From positions 6,891-70,890 of the forward strand of contig DAIDHW010000003.1 of NCBI GenBank assembly GCA_027451865.1: a DNA stretch of 64,000 nucleotides, given 5' to 3'. This stretch comes from Leptolyngbyaceae cyanobacterium clean351 (GTDB taxonomy: Bacteria > Cyanobacteriota > Cyanobacteriia > DAIDHW01). The notes below the pieces were generated by a model. The model made no database searches and had not been told where the DNA came from. It saw only the letters and a program-made list of their open reading frames with translations. Position numbers and translations under genes: made by a program. Shown one piece after another: positions 8,984 through 50,952 of this stretch. The number at the start of each line of letters is the position of its first letter. The stretch's first letter is position 1.

Positions 8984-11116
8984 ATGAATGAGCTGCCCAC
9001 CAAACCATTACTCCTGAGCGCTCCGGAATACTACATTAATCGGGAGACCAGTTGGCTTGAATTTAATAACCGGGTCCTGCAGGAGGCCTACGACCCCCGT
9101 ACCCCCCTCCTAGAGCGCCTGAAGTTCCTCGCCATCTTCAGTGCCAACCTAGATGAGTACTTCATGGTCCGGGTAGCTGCCCTCAAGGAGCAGGTGGAAG
9201 CCCTTTTCAACCAGCGTACTCCCGATGGTCTAACTCCCCAAGAACAGCTCCAGGCTATCTACACTCGCCTCCAGCCGGTGGTGGTGCGCCAGCACGAGTA
9301 CTTTGAGCAGGAGATGCGGCGGCGACTAGCGGACCAGGGGATTTACCTTCTAGACTACATTGACCTGGACCAAGAACAGCGCCTCTACCTGCGCCAGTAC
9401 TTTGAAGAGCACATTTTCCCGGTCCTCACCCCCCTCGCCGTAGACCCTAGTCATCCCTTCCCCTTTATTTCTAATTTGAGTCTCAACTTGGCCGTCATTG
9501 TCCAAGAGGAAACTAGCGGTAAGGAGTACTTTGCCCGCCTGAAGGTACCCAACCTCCTGCCCCGGTTTCTGGCCCTACCGGCGGGCCTATCCCACCCCCC
9601 CGCTGGTCAACCAGCCCTCTGGAGTGGTGTCCCCCTCGAGCAGGTGATTGCCCACAACCTGGAGCCCCTGTTTCCCGGGATGCATATCCTGGAGTACCAC
9701 GGCTTCCGGGTCACCCGGGGGGCAGAGGCGGAGGTCCAGCAGTCGGAGGCGGATGATCTGCTGCAGGCCATTGAGGAGGTGTTGCGTCAACGCCGGTTTG
9801 GCGGTTCAGTGGTCCGTCTCGAGGTCCAAGCTTCCATGCCCGTGACGGTGCGGGCCCGGCTGATGGAGGAGTTAACGATTGGTGAGCAGGATGTATACGA
9901 GGTGCGGGGTATGCTCGGGCAGCGGGACCTCATTGCCCTGTGGGAGTTGCCCCTGCCCCAGTTTAAGGACCACCCCTGGTCACCAGTAGTCCCTCGGGAG
10001 TTTCAGGAAGGGGAAGACCAAGACAATCTGTTTGCGGTCCTAGACCAACGGGACCTGTTGGTGCACCACCCCTACCAGTCCTTCGCCGGTACAGTCCAGC
10101 GCTTTCTTACCCAGGCCTCCCAGGACCCGGAAGTCCTGGCGATCAAAATGACCCTTTACCGCACCTCGGGGGACTCCCCCATCGTCGATGCCCTGATTCG
10201 AGCGGCAGAGAATGGTAAGCAGGTGGCGGTGCTGGTGGAACTCAAGGCTCGCTTTGATGAGGAGAATAATATTCTCTGGGCCCGGAAGCTAGAAAAAGTG
10301 GGCGTACACGTAGTCTATGGTCTGCTGGGCCTTAAGACTCACACCAAGATCGCCCTGGTGGTGCGGCGGGAGAAGAATCGCATCCGCCGCTACGTCCACA
10401 TCGGCACCGGCAACTATAACCCCAAGACCGCCCGCCTCTACACAGACCTGGGGCTGCTGAGCAGTCAAGAAGACCTAGGGGCGGATCTTTCAGACCTATT
10501 CAATTACCTAACCGGCTACTCCCGTCAGCAAGCCTACCGGAAACTCCTAGTCGCCCCTATGAACCTGCGGGAACGGATGCTGGGGCTGATCGACCGGGAG
10601 GCCACCCACTCTCAGGGGGGGAAGGCAGGCCGGATCATCGCCAAAATGAATTCCCTAGTCGACCCTGAGGTGATTACCCACCTTTACCGAGCCTCCCAAG
10701 CGGGGGTACAGATCGACTTGATAGTGAGGGGGATCTGTTGTCTACGACCCGGGTTGGCCGGGGTGAGTGAGAATATCCGGGTTGTCAGTGTGGTAGGCCG
10801 CTTCCTGGAGCACTCCCGAGTCTTTTACTTCTACAATCAAGGCCAGGAGGAGGTGTTCATCGGCAGCGCCGACTGGATGCCCCGCAACCTCGACCGGCGG
10901 GTGGAAGCGGTAGTGCCCGTAGAAGACCAACGCCTCAGCCGCGACCTGCAGGAGATCGTCGGGACAATGCTGGCGGACAACCGCCACGCCTGGGACCTAC
11001 AGCCGGACTGCACCTACACCCAACGCCAGCCCCAAGAGGGGGAGCGGGAGCGCAGTTGCCAAGACCAGTTAATGGCCACGGCCCGGGGAGGTGTCGGAGT
11101 TGGGGAGTGGAGCTAA
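8984..11116 (+). CDS. ppk: polyphosphate kinase 1
   Basis: It is 710 aa with a PPK1 N-terminus (EYYINRETSWLEFNNRVL) and PLD-like C-terminal domains. Confidence 0.9.
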   Translation: MNELPTKPLLLSAPEYYINRETSWLEFNNRVLQEAYDPRTPLLERLKFLAIFSANLDEYFMVRVAALKEQVEALFNQRTPDGLTPQEQLQAIYTRLQPVVVRQHEYFEQEMRRRLADQGIYLLDYIDLDQEQRLYLRQYFEEHIFPVLTPLAVDPSHPFPFISNLSLNLAVIVQEETSGKEYFARLKVPNLLPRFLALPAGLSHPPAGQPALWSGVPLEQVIAHNLEPLFPGMHILEYHGFRVTRGAEAEVQQSEADDLLQAIEEVLRQRRFGGSVVRLEVQASMPVTVRARLMEELTIGEQDVYEVRGMLGQRDLIALWELPLPQFKDHPWSPVVPREFQEGEDQDNLFAVLDQRDLLVHHPYQSFAGTVQRFLTQASQDPEVLAIKMTLYRTSGDSPIVDALIRAAENGKQVAVLVELKARFDEENNILWARKLEKVGVHVVYGLLGLKTHTKIALVVRREKNRIRRYVHIGTGNYNPKTARLYTDLGLLSSQEDLGADLSDLFNYLTGYSRQQAYRKLLVAPMNLRERMLGLIDREATHSQGGKAGRIIAKMNSLVDPEVITHLYRASQAGVQIDLIVRGICCLRPGLAGVSENIRVVSVVGRFLEHSRVFYFYNQGQEEVFIGSADWMPRNLDRRVEAVVPVEDQRLSRDLQEIVGTMLADNRHAWDLQPDCTYTQRQPQEGERERSCQDQLMATARGGVGVGEWS

Positions 11117-11180
11117 GCGGACTCGAACCGCTGACATCTACAATGCCATTGTAGCGCTCTACCAGCTGAGCTATAGCCCC
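11108..11180 (-). tRNA. tRNA-Ala (anticodon GGC)
   Basis: A hand-folded cloverleaf gives an acceptor stem GGGGCTA/TAGCTCC with the G3:U70 alanine identity pair. The anticodon loop is ATGGCAT and the T-loop is GGTTCGAGTCC. CCA is not encoded. Confidence 0.8.
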
Positions 11181-37017: not shown

Positions 37018-39141
37018 TTACCGGGTAGAAACGTGGTGGCGGGGAATTTCCGAGAGGAACCGAACGGCTATATCCTCGCTAAAATCCATGAAGTGTTGGG
37101 AGTGTTTAGCAGGGATAAGTTTGATCGCGCTTATTCTCTGTAGTCCAGAGGTGTCGCCGACAAAAAGCCTACCTAGGCTGATTGCTGATCCCAGGTAATA
37201 CCTAGTAAACAGGCCATCATTCCCAGTGGGATAAATGAATCTAAAAGGTCCCCTAACGGATCCATCAGCAAGCTTGAACAAGATATATACGTGGTCTGGT
37301 TTGTATAGGATATCCATAAGACCGCCCACCAATGTGGTTCGAATCCCTAGGTCCGTATAGGTGGCATTGCTTGGGACCTTTAACCACTGATGAAAACGGG
37401 TTTTTGTCCTGGCTGTGAGCACTAGTCCTGGTCTGGCGCAGGCAACGCGGCTAAGTACGGTGAGGGGTCCCTTGGCATACCTAGTTCTATAACAGTTTAG
37501 GATTGCCCTAAAGGTTGCGGGCTCATCAAATATCGGATATCTCCAATCAATAGTTTGAAACTTGTATATAATGTCATCGGCACTTGCCCCATCCCATATC
37601 TGCTCGGCATTTAAGTGATCCAGATAGGGTGTGTAGACAGAATAGGATTGTATAACCGGGCTAGCGAGCAATCTCAGATGGAATCCCTGGACTGCCATGA
37701 GGTCCCAAGGAATAATATTTACCGACTTGTGACCGACGGTGCCTTGTATACTGGCATAACTACTGATCTCTTGCCTGAGGGCATTCTGTTGTTTGTGGGC
37801 AAGGACAGACCTTTGTCTTTTTGATGTCAGTAGGGAAACAAAGTTCCTATAATTCATCACCTCATTTACTGAAGAACTCGATGGCCATCCAAGTAAATGA
37901 ATTGACGGCCATAAACTCTTGTGACTCACCACATAATTCGATGGCAGTGTCCCCAGCATGGGGAATATTAACGCCAGCAAATACATTGCCGAGAGGTTGA
38001 TAAGGGCGATTACATAGGATTTCCTGAGGAGTAGCGCTAGGATTACCACTGATATGAGGAGAGCGGTGCTAAAGAAGGTTAAGGCATGGCCACCAAAAAA
38101 TGCTAGATCGTGCCGTGTAAAGCCCTCCTTCCATGCCCAAAACATCATGACCGCTAGAACTATACTTTGCGCTAGTCGTGGCTTGTCTCCTTTTATCGCC
38201 ACTACGATGACAGTGGCGATAAAAAACAAGAGAATAGCCACTGCAACGATGGTTTGCGGAAGATACCCACTAAGGGACATGGCAGGTGTATAGCCGCGGG
38301 CAATTGCCCATGTTCCGCGTAAATACCCAGGTATATCTCCCATGGTCTGTCCCGCAGCAATCCATAGGCCGAGAAAGGCGATGACAAAAGACAGCAGCGG
38401 AATTAGGGATATCCTTCTCCATATCTTAGTGCCGATATACCACCATAGAAGTGGGTATAGGCAAACAACTGCAAGGGCGATCATCAAAGATGTGGACTTG
38501 ATGAGAGAGCCTAAAGCCAGGAGGAATCCAGAGAAAAATAAGGACAAAAAAACTGCCCCGCGCTCGGTAAGGGAGAGCACGAGCAGTAATAATCCCACAA
38601 AGGCCAATCGAGATGCCAGATCAAGCAGAGAGGCGCCTACTACCCACGCCATTATCGCGGGGATGACTATGTAACTAAACCCCCTGCTCGTCGGTAAAAG
38701 CCTAGGAAGTATGAGGAAAAAGGCTAAACCACAGGCTATCCAACTCACCAATTGAGCCAGGGCAGCCATACCCCATAGGAGGTGATCTGAGTAGAAATAC
38801 GGGTTTTCTAGAAAGCCTAGGGGACCATAGGTGAAGAGAATTGACTTTCCCCACTGTAAATGGTGCTCGAAGCCGTAGCCCAACATCCAAGCCCAGGAGG
38901 TATCTAAGATGTCATTAGTTGGAGCAAAAAAATCAACTAGCCGGGGCGTAGTCAATAGGAGTAACACGAACAGTAGGGAAAAAACCACAAGGTTAAATAG
39001 AATACCTGAAGGCTTTCTACTCCTAGGCTCGCGCTCTTGTAACTGAGGTTTTTCCGACATCTGGTGATCCGTTGACGGTGATGGGTGTTTCCCTGACCCT
39101 GAGGATAGCTGCGGTCGTGGGGGCCGCAAATGAGTATACAC
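37018..39141 (-). CDS. large polytopic membrane protein, putative GT-C-type glycosyltransferase / YfhO-like
   Basis: It has about 12 or more TM helices followed by a soluble domain of about 250 aa, and is AT-rich. The start may be the internal MSEKPQ methionine. Confidence 0.45.
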   Translation of the reverse strand: MYTHLRPPRPQLSSGSGKHPSPSTDHQMSEKPQLQEREPRSRKPSGILFNLVVFSLLFVLLLLTTPRLVDFFAPTNDILDTSWAWMLGYGFEHHLQWGKSILFTYGPLGFLENPYFYSDHLLWGMAALAQLVSWIACGLAFFLILPRLLPTSRGFSYIVIPAIMAWVVGASLLDLASRLAFVGLLLLVLSLTERGAVFLSLFFSGFLLALGSLIKSTSLMIALAVVCLYPLLWWYIGTKIWRRISLIPLLSFVIAFLGLWIAAGQTMGDIPGYLRGTWAIARGYTPAMSLSGYLPQTIVAVAILLFFIATVIVVAIKGDKPRLAQSIVLAVMMFWAWKEGFTRHDLAFFGGHALTFFSTALLISVVILALLLRKSYVIALINLSAMYLLALIFPMLGTLPSNYVVSHKSLWPSIHLLGWPSSSSVNEVMNYRNFVSLLTSKRQRSVLAHKQQNALRQEISSYASIQGTVGHKSVNIIPWDLMAVQGFHLRLLASPVIQSYSVYTPYLDHLNAEQIWDGASADDIIYKFQTIDWRYPIFDEPATFRAILNCYRTRYAKGPLTVLSRVACARPGLVLTARTKTRFHQWLKVPSNATYTDLGIRTTLVGGLMDILYKPDHVYILFKLADGSVRGPFRFIYPTGNDGLFTRYYLGSAISLGRLFVGDTSGLQRISAIKLIPAKHSQHFMDFSEDIAVRFLSEIPRHHVSTR

Positions 39142-39226: not shown

Positions 39227-39643
39227 CTACTGGTGGCTAGGGCTTGAGGGGGGTAGGGGGTTCTGGCTAGCTTGTCTGGCCCGCATTGCCGACTTTACCA
39301 GTTTTACTTGGTAGGGGTCAGCATCTTGGCGCCAGACGACTCGATGCCCTTGCAATTGGGCACAGTGGGCTCCTAGACACTTTTCCCAACCCCGGCGGTC
39401 ACTGATTCTACTTAGGTTATCTAACAGTCCCCAATTCTCTTCTTGGCGAGTCAGGTGGGTAAACCTTTCGTAGAGAGGATAGTCAGGCCTTACTAGCGAG
39501 TCCTTGCGGTGCAGCAGCGGGGGATTATCCTCACGGTCGTAGTCTTGGTAATGGACGTGGAGGTCCCGGAGATCAACCTGCATCCTGGTCTGGAGAGCCG
39601 GATGAGGGTCAGAATCAAATTCAGGGTAGAACATCCCGAACAT
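39227..39643 (-). CDS. hypothetical protein (138 aa), divergent from the HTH gene
   Basis: It is an intact ORF with no recognisable motifs. Confidence 0.35.
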   Translation of the reverse strand: MFGMFYPEFDSDPHPALQTRMQVDLRDLHVHYQDYDREDNPPLLHRKDSLVRPDYPLYERFTHLTRQEENWGLLDNLSRISDRRGWEKCLGAHCAQLQGHRVVWRQDADPYQVKLVKSAMRARQASQNPLPPSSPSHQ

Positions 39644-39699
39644 ACCAGTCCTGGGGGTTTGTGGCCTGGAGGATGACTGCCGTTATGTTGGATGAAACC

Positions 39700-39713
39700 A
39701 TAACAGATGTTAT
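39700..39713. promoter_or_regulatory. perfect inverted repeat ATAACA-GA-TGTTAT in the divergent intergenic region; candidate operator for the adjacent XRE-HTH protein
   Basis: It is a 6-2-6 palindrome lying between the divergent genes at 39643 and about 39763. Confidence 0.35.
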
Positions 39714-39762
39714 ACTTGCCAGCAAAAAGCAACTACTATTTTTGATCAGCAACTTTACAACA

Positions 39763-40557
39763 ATGAGTAAGGCCAACGACGCGCTTAGACAAACTATTGA
39801 GAAACATAATATTAGCCAGAGCCAACTCGCAGAGATCATGGGGATAGAAGGCGCAATAGTTTCAAATTGGTATCACAGTCAGGTTGATCCGAGAGCTGAA
39901 ACCGTAGCAGAGATCGTCAGAGCACTCAAGAGGATAGGCACAAAAGTAGCTGAAGACTTTATCAGGTTCTACTTGGATCTTCCTACTCAGCCCGGGCAAG
40001 ATTATCTGGTTTGTATGGCTGGATCTGAACTACCAGCTTCAGAAGTAGTAGATGTATCCACACTATCCGGCCTGTTTACTCAAACCACCAATTCCTATAA
40101 GTATTTATTTTTCATTTCACTATTAGATATTTTGAAGAGACAGAAATTTAACGTGTTATCACCCATTGGCTTTGGGAAAATAGCCATTGAAATACTTGCT
40201 AATACTTGGTATCCAAGCACCTACTGTAAGCTATCCTTTGGAATTTCAGATAGGCTTCCTAAAATGCTTAGCTCTCTAAAGTTAGACATTGGTAAACCGA
40301 TTTTAAAGTTTACTGATACAGATAAGAATTTGCTACGTAAAACTATTGGAAGTCAGAATTTGAGTTCTATAGTCTTTGAACTACTCAGATATGTCCCTTT
40401 CCGGCTCATCATGCCATTTGTTGAAGCAGAGTTAGAAAATATTGAGCGGGGAATTAGGGGAAAAGGTATGAAAGCTGATTATACAGTCCCTAGAATCGCT
40501 ACAGAGTATTTTGATCTCCGCAGCCCCTATATAAATTTAACTCCTCAGTTTATCTAG
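39763..40557 (+). CDS. XRE-family HTH protein with uncharacterised C-terminal domain
   Basis: It has an HTH (ISQSQLAEIMGIEGAIVSNWYH) followed by a domain of about 200 aa with no recognised motifs. The start is placed at the internal MSKAND methionine; the ORF is open from 39661. Confidence 0.5.
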   Translation: MSKANDALRQTIEKHNISQSQLAEIMGIEGAIVSNWYHSQVDPRAETVAEIVRALKRIGTKVAEDFIRFYLDLPTQPGQDYLVCMAGSELPASEVVDVSTLSGLFTQTTNSYKYLFFISLLDILKRQKFNVLSPIGFGKIAIEILANTWYPSTYCKLSFGISDRLPKMLSSLKLDIGKPILKFTDTDKNLLRKTIGSQNLSSIVFELLRYVPFRLIMPFVEAELENIERGIRGKGMKADYTVPRIATEYFDLRSPYINLTPQFI

Positions 40558-40616
40558 AATGTAATGCAATCAGCGTTCATCCAGCCTGGGCCGACTACCT
40601 ACAAAGAAGCTACGGC

Positions 40617-41006
40617 ATGATTCGTGGCTGGGCATCTTGGGAATGGCTTGAGTATATGCAGAAGTGTAACCCCAATACTCCAGCCATTATCAATAAGTTA
40701 TTCCCACCAAATCACCGAGATTCTCTAATAAAACAAACTGAATACTGGAAATATATACTACAACGTTCTGAGTTTTGCTGTATCTATACAAATGAACTGC
40801 TTAATTATGATCAAATTTCACTTGATCACTATTTGCCTTGGTCCCTTGTAGCTCATGACCAATTATGGAACCTTATTTCTACCTCTCCAAGAATTAATTC
40901 ATCGAAGTCAAATAAGCTTCCCCCAGATGGCTCATTTAATAAGTTCGTTGACTTTCAATACTCTGGCTTACAAGTTTCCTACCAGCACATGTCTAAACCA
41001 AAATAG
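40617..41006 (+). CDS. His-Me finger (HNH/DUF1524-like) nuclease, ending at an in-frame TAG followed by 51 further open codons
   Basis: It has the SLDHYLPWS...HDQLWNLIS...NSSKSNK motif (H-N-H-like with a terminal NKxF). The same frame stays open at 41007-41159 and also upstream from 40515. Confidence 0.5.
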   Translation: MIRGWASWEWLEYMQKCNPNTPAIINKLFPPNHRDSLIKQTEYWKYILQRSEFCCIYTNELLNYDQISLDHYLPWSLVAHDQLWNLISTSPRINSSKSNKLPPDGSFNKFVDFQYSGLQVSYQHMSKPK

Positions 41007-41284
41007 GAAAATTATGTCGAGTCTTTTAAGCTAGATTTAGGCATAAGCAGTACGGTAGAGTTATTAAACCCAGACAGTCTCCGAGGCGCCTACCAGAGAG
41101 TTATCCCTCCCTTACGGTCTCTGGCAAGTGGTCAAGGGTTTCGAGTCTGGCAAAAAATCTAAATTTAGACGAAATCAAAGGGCGCTATCAGGTTTCTACA
41201 AGCACCCCAAACCATTCTCTGGCCACATGTAGATATGTATACAAGCCATTAAGCCTACAAGTTTTTATTACTACACGTAAGTAA

Positions 41285-43576: not shown

Positions 43577-46036
43577 ATGATTGGCCAAATTGTGGGCGGG
43601 CGCTATCGGATCCTCTCCTCCCTAGGCGGGGGAAGCTTTGGGCAGACCTATCTCGCCGAGGATATCCATCGTCCGGAATTCCCCCAGTGTGTAGTCAAGC
43701 TCCTCAAGCCGGTAGTTACTAACCCCAGCTTTCTCCCCTTGGCGCGCAACCTATTTCACAAGGAAGCCCAGACCCTAGAGAGATTGGGAACCCACAGTCA
43801 GATCCCCCAGCTACTGGCCTACTTTGAGCAGGAGGAGAACTTCTACCTAGTCCAGGAGTTTGTTGCCGGCCACACCCTGCGCCACGAGCTCCCGCCCGGC
43901 CAGCCCTGGAGCGAAGCCCAAGTGGTCAAACTTCTCAGAGAAGTCCTCGGGGTCTTGGTATTCGTCCACGAGTGCCGTGTGATCCATCGAGACATTAAAC
44001 CTGATAACCTGATCCGTCGCCAAGCAGACCAACGCCTAGTCTTAATTGACTTTGGCGCGGTGAAGGTAATCCAAGGGGGCCCCGGGGCTAACCCCGGCAC
44101 CATTGCCATCGGTACCCCAGGGTACATGCCCCCGGAACAATCCCAAGGCCGCCCCCGCCCCAGCAGCGACCTATACGCCCTAGGGATGGTCGCCCTCCAG
44201 GCCCTCACCGGGGAGGGTCCTAGTCAGTTGCGCTTTGATGAGGCCGGGGAGGTCCTGTGGCCTCCTACCCCGGGGTTCAGTCCCGAGTTGGTGGCCCTGG
44301 TTAAACGGTTGGTGCGCTACCAGCCCCAGGACCGCTATCAAAGTGCCGCCGAGGCCCTAGGGGCTCTAGGGCACCTGAGGCGGCCTCAACTCCTGACCCG
44401 TCTGGGACGACTGCTCCAAACCCCGGTGGGGGAACTGCTCGGGGGACACCGGCCTACCCCTAGCTTCCCGGTTGCTCCCACGATGCCCCGCTCACCTAGG
44501 ACCCGGGTGTTTATCAGTCATCAGCCCCTCGAACTCGAAGTGGGAGTAGCTCAGGAGTTTTATCGGACCCTGGAGGCGGCGGGTTATCAACCCTTCATTA
44601 GTAGTATGTTTGCTACCCTGGCTAAGGACCAGTGGATCGCGGCCCTAGAGCAGTGCGACCACCTGATCCTCTTACTGTCGGCTCCCTCCGCCAATAGTGA
44701 GCTATTGCTCGAGGAGTTGCGCACGGTCCGAGGGGTGCAGGAGCGCCTGCAGCGCCCGCGGATCCTCCCTATCCGCCTGAATTTTCCCCCGGGCTTACCC
44801 CTCAACTACGAGATCCGCAGCTACCTGCAGGGAGTCCAGCAGCGGTTCTGGCGTCATTCAGAGGACACCAAGGGACTCCTAGAAGAAATCCTAGAGGTGT
44901 TAGCAAGTCCTCTTCTTGCTCCGGAGACCCCCACCACCGGTGGCACCCTCTCCACGGTGGTGCCCTGGGAAACTAAGGGGGCAGCCATCCCCCTGCCAGT
45001 GGCGGAACCGGAGATCCCCCAGGGCTACGTGAACTTGGCCTCGGCCTTCTACATCGAGCGCCCCCCCATCGAGAACCAGTGCTACGAGGCCATCCTGCAA
45101 CCCGGAGCCCTGATCCGGATCAAGGCCCCCCGCCAGATGGGCAAAACCTCCCTGATGGCTCGGATCCTCCACCAGGCTACCCAGGCCGGCTGTCGGAGTG
45201 TTTCCCTGAGCCTGCAGCTAGCGGACGGGAAGGTATTTACGGACTTAGATTGGTTTTTGCGCTGGTTGTGTGCCAGCCTGGGGCGGCGGCTGCAGCTAAC
45301 CAACCAGATTGACCAGTACTGGGATGGGGTGTTCGGTAGTAAGTACAATTGCACCGCCTACTTTGAGGAGTACATCCTGCCCCAGCTGCAGGTCCCCCTG
45401 GCCCTGGGGCTTGATGAGGTGGACCGAGTGTTTGCCTACCCAGAGATCGCTAGTGACTTTTTTGGTCTCCTGCGGGCCTGGCATGAGGAGGCCAAGAACC
45501 AGGAACTCTGGCAACGCCTGCGCCTAGTGGTGGTCCACGCCACGGAGGTATATATTCCCCTAGATACTAACCAGTCCCCCTTCAACGTCGGCTTACCCCT
45601 AGACCTACCCGAGTTTAACGCCGCCCAGGTCCAGGAGTTAGCCAAGCTCCACGGCCTAGTGTGGAGCTTGGACCAGGTGCAAGCCCTGATGGACCTGGTG
45701 GGGGGTCACCCTTACCTGGTCCGTCTAGCCCTGTACCACCTGGCCCAGCAGAATACCACCCTGCAGCGTCTGCTACAGGAGTCCCCCACAGAGGCCGGCA
45801 TGTACAGGGACCACCTGCACGGTCACCTCTGGAACCTCCAACAGCATCCCGAGCTCTTGCGGGCCTTTCAGCGGGTGGTCATGGACCCAGCACCGGTTAT
45901 CCTCGACGCCCTACCTCTATTCAAGCTACACAGCCTAGGACTAGTGCACTTACAGGGCAACCGGGTCAAACCCCGCTGCCATCTGTACCGTCAGTACTTT
46001 CAGCAGATTTTCAAGGCCACAGAGGCCGGGGAGTGA
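43577..46036 (+). CDS. Ser/Thr protein kinase - TIR-like - AAA-like/STAND NTPase fusion protein
   Basis: The kinase part has GGGSFG, a VKLL lysine, HRDIKPDN, DFG and GTPGYMPPE. The TIR-like block is RVFISHQ...LILLLSAPSANSELLLEEL. The NTPase part has a Walker A motif (APRQMGKTSL) in a C-terminal AAA-like domain. Confidence 0.75.
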   Translation: MIGQIVGGRYRILSSLGGGSFGQTYLAEDIHRPEFPQCVVKLLKPVVTNPSFLPLARNLFHKEAQTLERLGTHSQIPQLLAYFEQEENFYLVQEFVAGHTLRHELPPGQPWSEAQVVKLLREVLGVLVFVHECRVIHRDIKPDNLIRRQADQRLVLIDFGAVKVIQGGPGANPGTIAIGTPGYMPPEQSQGRPRPSSDLYALGMVALQALTGEGPSQLRFDEAGEVLWPPTPGFSPELVALVKRLVRYQPQDRYQSAAEALGALGHLRRPQLLTRLGRLLQTPVGELLGGHRPTPSFPVAPTMPRSPRTRVFISHQPLELEVGVAQEFYRTLEAAGYQPFISSMFATLAKDQWIAALEQCDHLILLLSAPSANSELLLEELRTVRGVQERLQRPRILPIRLNFPPGLPLNYEIRSYLQGVQQRFWRHSEDTKGLLEEILEVLASPLLAPETPTTGGTLSTVVPWETKGAAIPLPVAEPEIPQGYVNLASAFYIERPPIENQCYEAILQPGALIRIKAPRQMGKTSLMARILHQATQAGCRSVSLSLQLADGKVFTDLDWFLRWLCASLGRRLQLTNQIDQYWDGVFGSKYNCTAYFEEYILPQLQVPLALGLDEVDRVFAYPEIASDFFGLLRAWHEEAKNQELWQRLRLVVVHATEVYIPLDTNQSPFNVGLPLDLPEFNAAQVQELAKLHGLVWSLDQVQALMDLVGGHPYLVRLALYHLAQQNTTLQRLLQESPTEAGMYRDHLHGHLWNLQQHPELLRAFQRVVMDPAPVILDALPLFKLHSLGLVHLQGNRVKPRCHLYRQYFQQIFKATEAGE

Positions 46037-47685: not shown

Positions 47686-49784
<2,099 letters not shown>

Positions 49785-50048: not shown

Positions 50049-50486
50049 TTAGGTAGAAATGGGTTGGTAGAGGGCCTGCAGTTCTAACAGCAGGTTCAGA
50101 CACTGGTGGTCACTCATCAGTTGGGGGCTGAAGGCAAAACTGGGAGAGTGCTTGGTGAGCACCCGCTGCACCGGCCCTGAGAGGTTGGTATTCAGGTCCA
50201 CCACTTTCATTCCCCAGTCAGTGAAGTGGCGATGGGTAACCTCAGCACAGTAGATCAACTCAGGGCTGTGGTGCCGGGGGTCTTGGGCGATCCGGTGGTA
50301 GGTAGTACTCAGGCTAGGGCGGTTCCCCTCCAGCAGTTGGAGAAACATCCCGTTGCCGTAGCAGAGCATACCAGTAATACTTGCCGAGGCATTGTTGCGC
50401 TCTGATCTGGTCAAGATGTCCGCCAAGTCAGCGTAGCCCAGGTTGGGGATGGCCTGGCTAGCGTACACAAGCCGATAAAGGGTCAT
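50049..50486 (-). CDS. pixD: BLUF-domain blue-light photoreceptor (PixD-like)
   Basis: It follows PixD closely: MTLYRLVYASQ...ITGMLCYGNGMFLQLLEG...YHRIAQDPRHHSPELI...CLNLLLEL. The start is set at the internal MTLYRL methionine, just after the rpsI stop. Confidence 0.8.
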   Translation of the reverse strand: MTLYRLVYASQAIPNLGYADLADILTRSERNNASASITGMLCYGNGMFLQLLEGNRPSLSTTYHRIAQDPRHHSPELIYCAEVTHRHFTDWGMKVVDLNTNLSGPVQRVLTKHSPSFAFSPQLMSDHQCLNLLLELQALYQPIST

Positions 50487-50535
50487 GGCCGGGATTTGAG
50501 GTGCTCCTTGTATTGTAAGGGCCCGAGGCTCTAAC

Positions 50536-50952
50536 CTAGCGCTTGGAGTACTGGGGAGCCTTACGGGCTTTGCGCAATCCGTACTTGCGCCGTTCCTTGG
50601 CCCGGGGGTCACGGGTAAGGTAGCCTTCTGCCTTCAGGGGACGACGGTTATCGGGACTAAGCTCGCATAGGGCCCGGGCTACTCCGAGACGGATGGCATC
50701 CGCCTGACCAGTGAGGCCGCCGCCCCGGGCGTTCACTAGGATATCGTACTCAGCCTCCATGCCCAGAACTTCCAGGGGGGCCTTAGCAAGGGACAGGTAG
50801 GCAGGGTTGAACTGTAGGTAAAGATCCCCAGGGTGACCGTTGACCACGAGTTTACCAGTACCAGGGACGAGACGCACCCGGGCCACGGCTGCCTTGCGTC
50901 GACCGGTCCCCCAGTAGACGACCCGGTCTGACTTAGTTACAACGGTGGTCAT
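50536..50952 (-). CDS. rpsI: 30S ribosomal protein S9
   Basis: It has a C-terminal [14 protein letters not shown] motif. Confidence 0.9.

Follow-up and report, generated by a model that had tools for sequence, protein, structure and literature searches.

In the 64,000-nucleotide stretch of contig DAIDHW010000003.1 of Leptolyngbyaceae cyanobacterium clean351 analysed here (hereafter the window), one gene encodes a protein composed of a Hanks-type serine/threonine kinase, a TIR domain and a P-loop NTPase of the Pfam family AAA_35. In the relatives of this protein the TIR-AAA_35 part is a constant chassis and the N-terminal slot is interchangeable, being occupied by a kinase, a trypsin, a caspase or CHAT domain, a nucleotide cyclase or a helix-turn-helix (HTH) domain. 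The window protein can be read as the output half of a switch in which nucleotide drives the oligomerisation of the cyanobacterial AAA_35 module and which resembles the signal transduction ATPases with numerous domains (STAND), a reading to which a probability of roughly 0.45 is assigned. By analogy of position, the kinase would probably be an output of this switch rather than an input.

The presence of the three domains in a single polypeptide had been proposed from the sequence in an initial annotation and was confirmed by Pfam and by an intact reading frame of 819 codons plus stop. The frame is uninterrupted from an ATG start and its N-terminus ('MIGQIVGGRY') lines up with the starts of the homologs in the alignment. 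The same three-domain layout was found in 55 other protein clusters with about 50-60% identity (among the matches listed), originating from Cyanothece PCC 7425, Synechococcus PCC 6312, Thermosynechococcus, Acaryochloris, Lyngbya confervoides and Oscillatoria. These 55 clusters rule out a chance fusion as well as a frameshift artefact. The architecture, previously described as unusual, is thus neither rare nor unique and defines a conserved cyanobacterial family. Another 64 of the matches listed combine the kinase and AAA_35 without TIR.

The TIR-AAA_35 chassis, its N-terminal slot and its partner gene

Species-representative genomes were scanned for the locus and 80 loci were returned. All but one contain a clean TIR-AAA_35 open reading frame (ORF), the last one (L007) being split by a frame disruption. 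The kinase is present in only nine of the 80. The content of the N-terminal slot was determined with Pfam on the region ahead of the TIR domain: Trypsin_2 was found in 13 loci, an HTH of the sigma-70 region 4 or LuxR type also in 13, a class III nucleotide cyclase (Guanylate_cyc) in 10, Pkinase in eight, CHAT in five and Peptidase_C14 in four, the last two counts possibly overlapping. Eleven loci encode a bare TIR-AAA_35 protein with fewer than 70 residues ahead of the TIR domain, and the remaining ones encode an N-terminal region without Pfam match. The NTPase of the window protein is 67-68% identical to those of the trypsin-TIR-AAA_35 and bare TIR-AAA_35 proteins and 63-68% identical to those of the kinase-bearing orthologs. 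With the TIR-less kinase-AAA_35 family the identity is 53-57% for the NTPase and 46-54% for the kinase. Because the NTPase identities are equal across N-terminal types, and because of the 46-54% between the kinases, the N-terminal modules appear to be shuffled on a conserved chassis.

A second gene was found downstream on the same strand in 56 of the 79 loci, at a distance of 300 nt or less or overlapping in 36 of these 56. Four more loci possess a convergent copy of it, and in roughly 9-12 of the remaining ones too little of the downstream contig is available to judge. The product of this partner gene is a distant AAA_35 paralog, about 20% identical and carrying the same motifs. The partner proteins have no N-terminal domain and a variable C-terminus, which consists of a WD40 propeller in 31 of 60 cases and of a trypsin, HisKA plus HATPase_c or a lectin-like domain in others; the sensors found in the partners of relatives also include GAF and PAS domains. 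As predicted from these domain contents, the layout effector, nucleotide-binding oligomerisation domain (NOD) and sensor is split in the relatives between two paralogous NOD proteins. The same partner rule was observed for the TIR-less kinase-AAA_35 proteins in the two loci examined: one has an AAA_35-WD40 partner standing amid toxin-antitoxin genes, the other an AAA_35-GAF-GAF-PAS partner.

Several members of the wider family have an organization of their own. In Leptolyngbya sp. 'hensonii' (L087, 5277-13421), genes coding for an FHA-GAF-Guanylate_cyc protein, a kinase-AAA_35 protein, an AAA_35-GAF-GAF-PAS protein with an overlapping start and a sigma-70 factor lie on the same strand. This cluster suggests a cascade of phospho-Thr, cyclic-nucleotide and transcription steps around an AAA_35 pair. 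At L085/L086 (274-12704), at least four AAA_35 genes, one of them encoding an AAA_35-NACHT double NTPase of about 1100 residues, are interleaved with toxin-antitoxin pairs of the ParDE, YafQ and HepT/MNT types. The relatives P0053 and P0054 add a C-terminal cyclase. Giant proteins of 1400-2330 residues (P0144, P0159, P0178, P0189, P0198, P0203, P0234 and similar) contain five to seven tandem matches confined to the first half (about positions 4-90) of the TIR subfamily profile, as repeated half-TIR units. Only two TIR-AAA_35 proteins are apparently non-cyanobacterial. The first, on an Actinomycetota-labelled contig of a metagenome-assembled genome (L043, 52% identical), may come from a mis-binned cyanobacterial contig; the second, on the Abditibacteriota plasmid AP024153.1 (H9, 36% identical), may be a genuine distant homolog.

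Domain analysis of the window protein

The kinase domain matches Pfam Pkinase with 117.8 bits for a cutoff of 31.7. It looks active, judging from a complete set of catalytic motifs: GGGSFG, K41, E63, HRDIKPDN (H137-R138-D139, N144), DFG at 158-160, the APE-like PPE at 185-187, D198 and R253. These motifs are invariant in 32 full-length homologs, in agreement with the initial annotation that all of them were present. Its best solved relatives are PknB and StkP (E about 1e-24 to 1e-25). The full protein gave many matches in PADLOC, all confined to the kinase domain, such as those of the PD-T4-6 models to residues 4-268 (E 1e-91), which cover the kinase domain only and are generic for Hanks kinases. 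Likewise, only the kinase domain is similar to NCBIfam TIGR03903, a TOMM kinase/cyclase fusion. The kinase carries no ligand-binding or transmembrane extension.

The middle domain matches Pfam TIR_2 at residues 311-421 with 36.2 bits for a gathering cutoff of 28, the relatives scoring 50-78 bits. Residues 302-458 were modelled with AlphaFold2 on an alignment of 22 sequences, giving a confident model with alternating beta and alpha elements (pLDDT 88, pTM 0.82). When this model was compared with the PDB using Foldseek, the best 49 matches were all TIR domains (query TM about 0.45-0.67), including those of SPARTA TIR-APAZ, RPS4/RRS1, SARM1, TIR-STING, RUN1, RPP1, L6, TcpB and PdTIR. The domain is therefore modelled as a TIR fold. 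In a profile of 58 family TIR domains, E380 lines up with the catalytic Glu of Roq1 (WCLEEL) and Cat1 (WCWDEL). Of 138 family members, 121 have Glu at this position, 14 have Gln and two have Ala; S374 never varies and position 375 is always Glu or Asp. The TIR-like character initially proposed is upheld by the modelled fold and by the presence of an acidic residue, E380, at the putative catalytic position. The C-terminal half of the domain (392-426) is more conserved than the catalytic region, P394, R400, L409, N410, R414, L417 and W425 being invariant or nearly so across the 138 proteins.

The AAA_35 match covers the whole length of the Pfam model, and the protein ends nine residues past it. 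The model of residues 467-819 (pLDDT 86, pTM 0.80) comprises a P-loop alpha/beta core, a helical lid and a C-terminal unit whose beta-hairpin resembles, and which is probably, a winged helix. Its best full-length Foldseek matches are the archaeal ATPases 2qen and 2fna (TM 0.60-0.63), followed by archaeal ORC2 and then by the NB-ARC/STAND modules of Roq1, Avs3, RPP1, Dark, Sr35 and Avs4 (E 6e-7 to 6e-5). The modelled NTPase thus falls on the boundary of ORC/Cdc6 and STAND. Both NTPase paralog classes share, without variation, Walker A (RQMGK[TS]S), Walker B (DE[VI]D), R633, GG[HQ]P[YF]L and, after the helical lid, H746. The GG[HQ]P[YF]L motif presumably resembles the GLPL/GxP motif of NB-ARC STAND domains, and H746 may be a nucleotide-sensing His comparable to that of the STAND MHD motif, both equivalences being by position only. 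Taken with the Walker motifs, the NB-ARC- and Avs-like model bears out the STAND/AAA-like P-loop NTPase proposed from the sequence, and on this structural prediction the label 'STAND-like' is justified. The NTPase sequence profile gave nothing significant against the PDB, with a weak ORC2 match at E 0.025; this comparison was dropped as evidence for the class, its matches to RecA being limited to the P-loop and inflated by fused RecA repeats.

A proposed oligomerisation switch and its alternatives

Dimerisation or induced proximity is the typical mode of activation of kinases, caspases, class III cyclases and HTH domains, which would explain why the N-terminal domains are interchangeable. The kinase is read as an output because it occupies the variable N-terminal slot, which is the established output or effector position in STAND proteins (PMC10907252). 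Kinases are also listed among the effector-position domains of related conflict systems (PMC7159879, PMC8195603). We infer an oligomerisation, a hetero-pairing, a proximity activation and a physiological outcome. A trigger, delivered in the two-gene relatives by the sensor-bearing paralog, would cause nucleotide exchange and oligomerisation of the AAA_35 NTPase; for the solitary window version, the partner is possibly encoded elsewhere. The TIR domains and the N-terminal kinases would thereby be clustered. Induced proximity would activate the kinase through trans-autophosphorylation of its activation loop, at T175/T180, and cellular targets would then be phosphorylated. The TIR domain would cleave NAD+ or make a nucleotide signal through E380, or else act mainly as an assembly scaffold. 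The outcome would most likely be growth arrest or another stress or infection response. In the lineage of the window organism, the gene behaves like a domesticated chromosomal resident and not like a mobile defence gene.

Several points weigh against such a switch. No biochemical data on any AAA_35 protein were found in the literature search, the analogy of position falls short of proof, and the kinase could regulate the NTPase or the TIR domain in cis. According to Pfam the window polypeptide has no C-terminal sensor repeat domain, and no partner gene, i.e. no other AAA_35-like ORF, was found within the 64-kb window. The structure models cover residues 302-458 and residues 467-819, each taken separately. 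The TIR domain itself departs from the canonical sequence. The pattern FISH...LLLSxxSxxSxWxxEEL reported for it initially was right for the Glu but not for the Trp: the actual sequence is LLLSAPSANSELLLEEL, and the Trp of the WxxxE motif is absent, position 376 being Leu in the window protein and Met in 94, Leu in 29 and Val in 11 of the 138 family members. A BB-loop of normal length with a conserved Gly is needed for TIR-TIR assembly. Examination of the model and alignments for a catalytic Glu and a BB-loop, as had been suggested, located the candidate Glu, but the BB-loop is three residues shorter than in the consensus, whose Gly is replaced by Ala ('ATLAK---DQW' vs 'RLGENW'); this Gly is kept in 95 of 138 relatives. 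The window TIR is also extra diverged, with a mean identity of 45% vs 54% for other pairs at matched NTPase divergence, and other family members have TIR domains still more diverged. Because of the short BB-loop without Gly, the Leu in place of the Trp and this extra divergence, the NADase competence of the window TIR is uncertain, the candidate catalytic Glu E380 being kept.

Whether AAA_35 proteins of this type lead to cell death or to ordinary regulation is a question on which the evidence points both ways. TIR-AAA_35 genes were found on 42 cyanobacterial plasmids and on no phage. On the Nostoc plasmid pNsp_e, genes for Trypco1, Trypsin-TIR-AAA_35 and AAA_35-WD40×12-Amidase_3 follow each other amid ParDE, recombinase and Tn3 genes. 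The repertoire of NTP-dependent conflict systems in multicellular bacteria includes Trypco1, trypsin, caspase, TIR and WD40 (PMC7159879, PMC10907252). The immune or suicide function initially proposed for the TIR-STAND combination is accordingly plausible for the sister architectures, with their trypsin or caspase domains, Trypco1, WD40 repeats and plasmid or toxin-antitoxin settings. For the window gene, which is solitary and has housekeeping neighbours, a native GC content at third codon positions (GC3) and a short BB-loop, the case is weak. No model of PADLOC-DB 2.0.0 matches residues 300-819, i.e. the TIR-NTPase part, even at E <=1, and membership in Thoeris or Avs was rejected for this reason. 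There are also no ThsA-like or other defence genes among the neighbours of the gene.

The window protein could alternatively serve non-lethal regulatory signalling, with AAA_35 as a STAND-type switch in the manner of MalT, AfsR and PknK, the TIR domain as a non-catalytic scaffold and phosphorylation as the output; it would then control a response such as stress or light/metabolic adaptation and not immunity or suicide. This is a possible explanation, if a somewhat unlikely one. HTH and cyclase domains also fill the output slot of the relatives and, together with partners bearing GAF/PAS or histidine-kinase sensors, resemble plain signal transduction; one locus, that of L087, stands beside FHA-GAF-cyclase and sigma-factor genes. 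The window gene is flanked by an aminotransferase gene and by dapB, with gaps of 31 and 39 nt (dapB starting 39 nt after it), and no promoter or terminator signal above the shuffled background was detected around it. Its GC3 of 0.727 equals that of its neighbours, the value being about 0.36 for a foreign HTH/HNH gene pair nearby. The Synechococcus PCC 6312 and Thermosynechococcus orthologs likewise stand alone among housekeeping genes, ferrochelatase and bilin reductase genes in the case of PCC 6312. Synteny at the locus is complete in four Thermosynechococcus species, whose copies of the protein are 91-94% identical, a level comparable to that of most neighbours. No synteny of flanking genes was found between the window and any ortholog locus. 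The absence of a PADLOC match for the TIR-NTPase part, the Gln found in place of E380 in 14 of 138 proteins and the degraded BB-loop point in the same direction as this regulatory explanation. It is opposed by the retention of the Glu in 121 of 138 proteins and the essential invariance of S374 and E375, which suggest an enzymatic constraint on the TIR domain, and by the sister proteins associated with proteases and Trypco1 on plasmids, amid toxin-antitoxin and transposase genes.

The kinase had initially been taken for an input module; by sensing or relaying a signal, it would exert control in cis over a TIR-STAND suicide effector depleting NAD+. The solitary protein has indeed no other candidate sensor domain, the kinase motifs are intact, the TIR Glu is kept and the NTPase is STAND-like; moreover, the similarity to the kinases of the TIR-less kinase-AAA_35 proteins implies a long history shared by kinase and NTPase. 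However, the kinase lacks any extension through which a ligand could be bound or the membrane crossed, its slot holds trypsin, caspase/CHAT, cyclase or HTH domains in the relatives, whose sensors sit on the paralogous NTPase, and the N-terminus is the effector position in STAND proteins (PMC10907252). An input role is consequently unlikely. Very improbable, finally, is a decaying orphan, i.e. a helper that lost its sensor partner and is drifting without function. The window protein has no partner in the window, is the shortest member of the family, carries a BB-loop deletion and has a TIR of above-average divergence. Nevertheless, its 2.46-kb frame is intact, catalytic motifs are retained in all three domains, the conservation pattern is typical of purifying selection, there are conserved solitary orthologs throughout Thermosynechococcus and in Synechococcus PCC 6312, and the TIR domains of some family members are even more diverged.

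The proposed output half of a switch can be compared with several known systems. As in the plant TIR-NB-ARC-LRR (leucine-rich repeat) proteins Roq1 and RPP1, the TIR domain precedes a STAND-type module and has its Glu at the same aligned position; the NTPase model matches their NB-ARC domains (E 6e-7 to 3e-5, query TM about 0.55), and the NTPase carries a GxP-like motif and an invariant His, candidate counterparts of GLPL and MHD. Unlike them, the window protein has no LRR or other sensor, an active-looking Hanks kinase ahead of the TIR domain, no WxxxE Trp and a short BB-loop, and its NTPase is nearer to 2qen and 2fna than to NB-ARC. With Avs3, Avs4 and the bacterial NACHT proteins it shares an N-terminal effector followed by a STAND-like NTPase, together with structural similarity to Avs3 and Avs4; it differs by the lack of a C-terminal TPR-like sensor of phage proteins, by the lack of a PADLOC match and by its housekeeping context. 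In PknK of Mycobacterium tuberculosis and in the TOMM kinase/cyclase fusions, a Hanks kinase is N-terminal to a large STAND/AAA-type NTPase, which is MalT-like with TPR repeats, and there is no TIR domain. The window protein has the same N-terminal fusion of kinase and NTPase, and P0053 and P0054 share the added C-terminal cyclase, but the similarity detected between these fusions and the window protein is confined to the kinase domain. The window kinase also matches the PADLOC models of PD-T4-6, which is devoid of TIR and NTPase. The staphylococcal kinase Stk2, as cited in PMC13581612, is an earlier example of a kinase in the role of abortive-infection effector.

The archaeal ATPases 2qen and 2fna, the best structural matches of the NTPase, are presumably of the MNS type. 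The MNS clade, or Npun2340/2341 family, is described as a group of cyanobacterial STAND NTPases (Leipe et al. 2004, via the passage in Kaur et al. 2021, PMC8195603). It is named after two consecutively numbered genes of Nostoc punctiforme, which resembles the AAA_35/AAA_35 pair. AAA_35 probably corresponds to this family, a match made by description. The NTP-dependent conflict systems reported by the same group (PMC7159879, PMC8195603) have the same effectors (trypsin/Trypco1, caspase/CHAT, TIR, cyclase and S/T kinase), WD40 sensors and an enrichment in filamentous cyanobacteria. The focus of Kaur et al. 2020 and 2021 is, however, on vWA-MoxR ternary systems, iSTAND/nSTAND and EAD adaptors, and the kinases described there are mostly actinobacterial and mostly inactive (PMC7159879, PMC8195603). 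In the AAA_35 family, in contrast, the kinase looks active, the TIR domain is constant and the effector and sensor roles are split between paralogous NTPases. It is already known that STAND-type NTPases with swappable effectors, TIR and kinases included, are enriched in cyanobacteria, and databases annotate these proteins by domain. The literature search yielded neither experiments nor a detailed comparison concerning the constant TIR-AAA_35 chassis, the effector/sensor split between two paralogs, the conserved subfamily with an active-looking kinase or its solitary chromosomal form in unicellular thermophiles. On the AAA_35 family itself, nothing was found beyond one sentence of PMC8195603 on the presumed family Npun2340/2341.

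Sensor and helper pairs are well known among the nucleotide-binding leucine-rich repeat receptors (NLRs), for example NAIP-NLRC4 in animals and RRS1-RPS4 in plants. By analogy, the relatives encode a sensor NOD and a paralogous effector NOD side by side; the window gene differs in having no partner, and hetero-oligomerisation of the AAA_35 pair is putative. A doubtful but broader extension would be a cyanobacterial 'split NLR', in which an AAA_35-sensor protein recruits an output-TIR-AAA_35 helper into a hetero-oligomer. The kinase helper, with its TIR domain fused directly to an active Hanks kinase, would then be a single-chain prokaryotic counterpart of MyD88-IRAK, the route from TIR to kinase in animal innate immunity, and unicellular thermophiles, the window organism included, would keep the helper without adjacent sensor as a domesticated core regulator. 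If the proposed switch is correct, the family offers a genetically tractable and compact system for studying how a STAND-type oligomerisation switch co-activates a eukaryote-like kinase together with a TIR domain, and also how effector and sensor roles are divided between paralogous NODs, an arrangement otherwise best known in the paired NLRs of plants and animals. The orthologs of the thermophilic Thermosynechococcus would be good structural material. Comparison of plasmid-borne, protease-armed versions with the chromosomally fixed, solitary kinase versions could show the domestication of a conflict system into signalling. Should the protein be an ordinary regulatory kinase, its value would be smaller, that of a functional lead for the large unannotated cyanobacterial AAA_35 family.

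Sequence features and neighbouring genes

The features of the gene are given in Table 1. In the Pro-rich motif IPLPVAEPEIPQGYV, P472, P474, A476, P478, P481 and G483 are invariant in the alignment, and the stretch 470-486 is modelled as disordered (pLDDT <50). With 819 residues, compared with about 850-890, the protein is the shortest of the family.

Table 1. Positions, in the window, of the kinase-TIR-AAA_35 gene and of its domains and motifs.
Feature	Position	Strand	Basis or remarks
Complete ORF, kinase-TIR-AAA_35 protein	43577..46036	+	GC 0.607, GC3 0.727, same as neighbours
Hanks-type Ser/Thr kinase, residues 10-257	43604..44347	+	Pfam Pkinase E 7e-34
Post-kinase conserved segment, residues 270-290, PQLLTRLGRLLQTPVGELLGG, then Pro-rich variable linker	44384..44446	+	Alignment consensus QRxGxxLRTPVxxL
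TIR domain, residues 309-443	44501..44905	+	Pfam TIR_2, AlphaFold2 model, Foldseek
BB-loop region, residues 338-356	44588..44644	+	Alignments; lower pLDDT in model
E380 codon, candidate TIR catalytic Glu	44714..44716	+	Alignment with Roq1, Cat1
C-terminal TIR half, residues 392-426, family-specific, highly conserved	44750..44854	+	138-protein comparison
Pro-rich linear motif IPLPVAEPEIPQGYV, residues 470-486, directly before NTPase	44984..45034	+	Alignment
AAA_35 NTPase module, residues 481-810	45017..46006	+	Pfam AAA_35 E 1.9e-153, model, Foldseek
Walker A (IKAPRQMGKTSL; G522, K523, T524, S525)	45119..45154	+	Invariant, both NTPase paralog classes
Walker B (LGLDEVD; D613, E614, D616)	45395..45427	+	Invariant, both NTPase paralog classes
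GxP-like motif 'VGGHPYLV', residues 708-715, helical lid	45692..45724	+	Invariant, both paralog classes
D745-H746 ('YRDHLH')	45803..45820	+	Invariant, both paralog classes

A recent horizontal acquisition of the gene was rejected, its GC3 matching that of the neighbours. Every Thermosynechococcus copy of the kinase-TIR-AAA_35 gene is followed by a gene coding for a 137-residue HATPase_c_2 protein, similar to the RsbW anti-sigma factor/Ser kinase (L082, 10774-11187; syntenic copies exist in L004, L035 and L039). This protein is 94-96% conserved between species and a functional link with the kinase-TIR-AAA_35 protein is possible.

Upstream of the gene in the window, positions 39227-41200 form a low-GC island (GC 0.37-0.40 and GC3 about 0.36, compared with about 0.60 and 0.72 in the surroundings) that is clearly foreign DNA. 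It contains a gene for a 298-residue Cro/C1-type HTH protein (39661-40557, +), followed by one for a 129-residue HNH_4 endonuclease (40617-41006, +), and an ORF of 138 residues on the opposite strand (39227-39643). PADLOC gave weak matches only for this island, of the HNH protein to Cas9 HNH regions and of the HTH protein to RmrA (E 0.003). The island is adjoined by a gene (37018-39141, -; GC 0.48) coding for a multi-pass membrane protein of 707 residues without Pfam or PADLOC match.

Elsewhere in the window, a single tRNA gene (11108-11180, -) is the only Rfam match at the gathering threshold in the 64 kb. At 47686-48672 (+), an N-terminal STAS domain is fused to a Bac_transf sugar transferase, an unusual pairing. 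A BLUF blue-light sensor is encoded at 50049-50612 (-) by an ORF with a GTG start that overlaps the 3' end of rpsI (50536-50952). Since the BLUF domain spans residues 44-135, the real start of this ORF probably lies near residue 43 ('MTLYRLVY').

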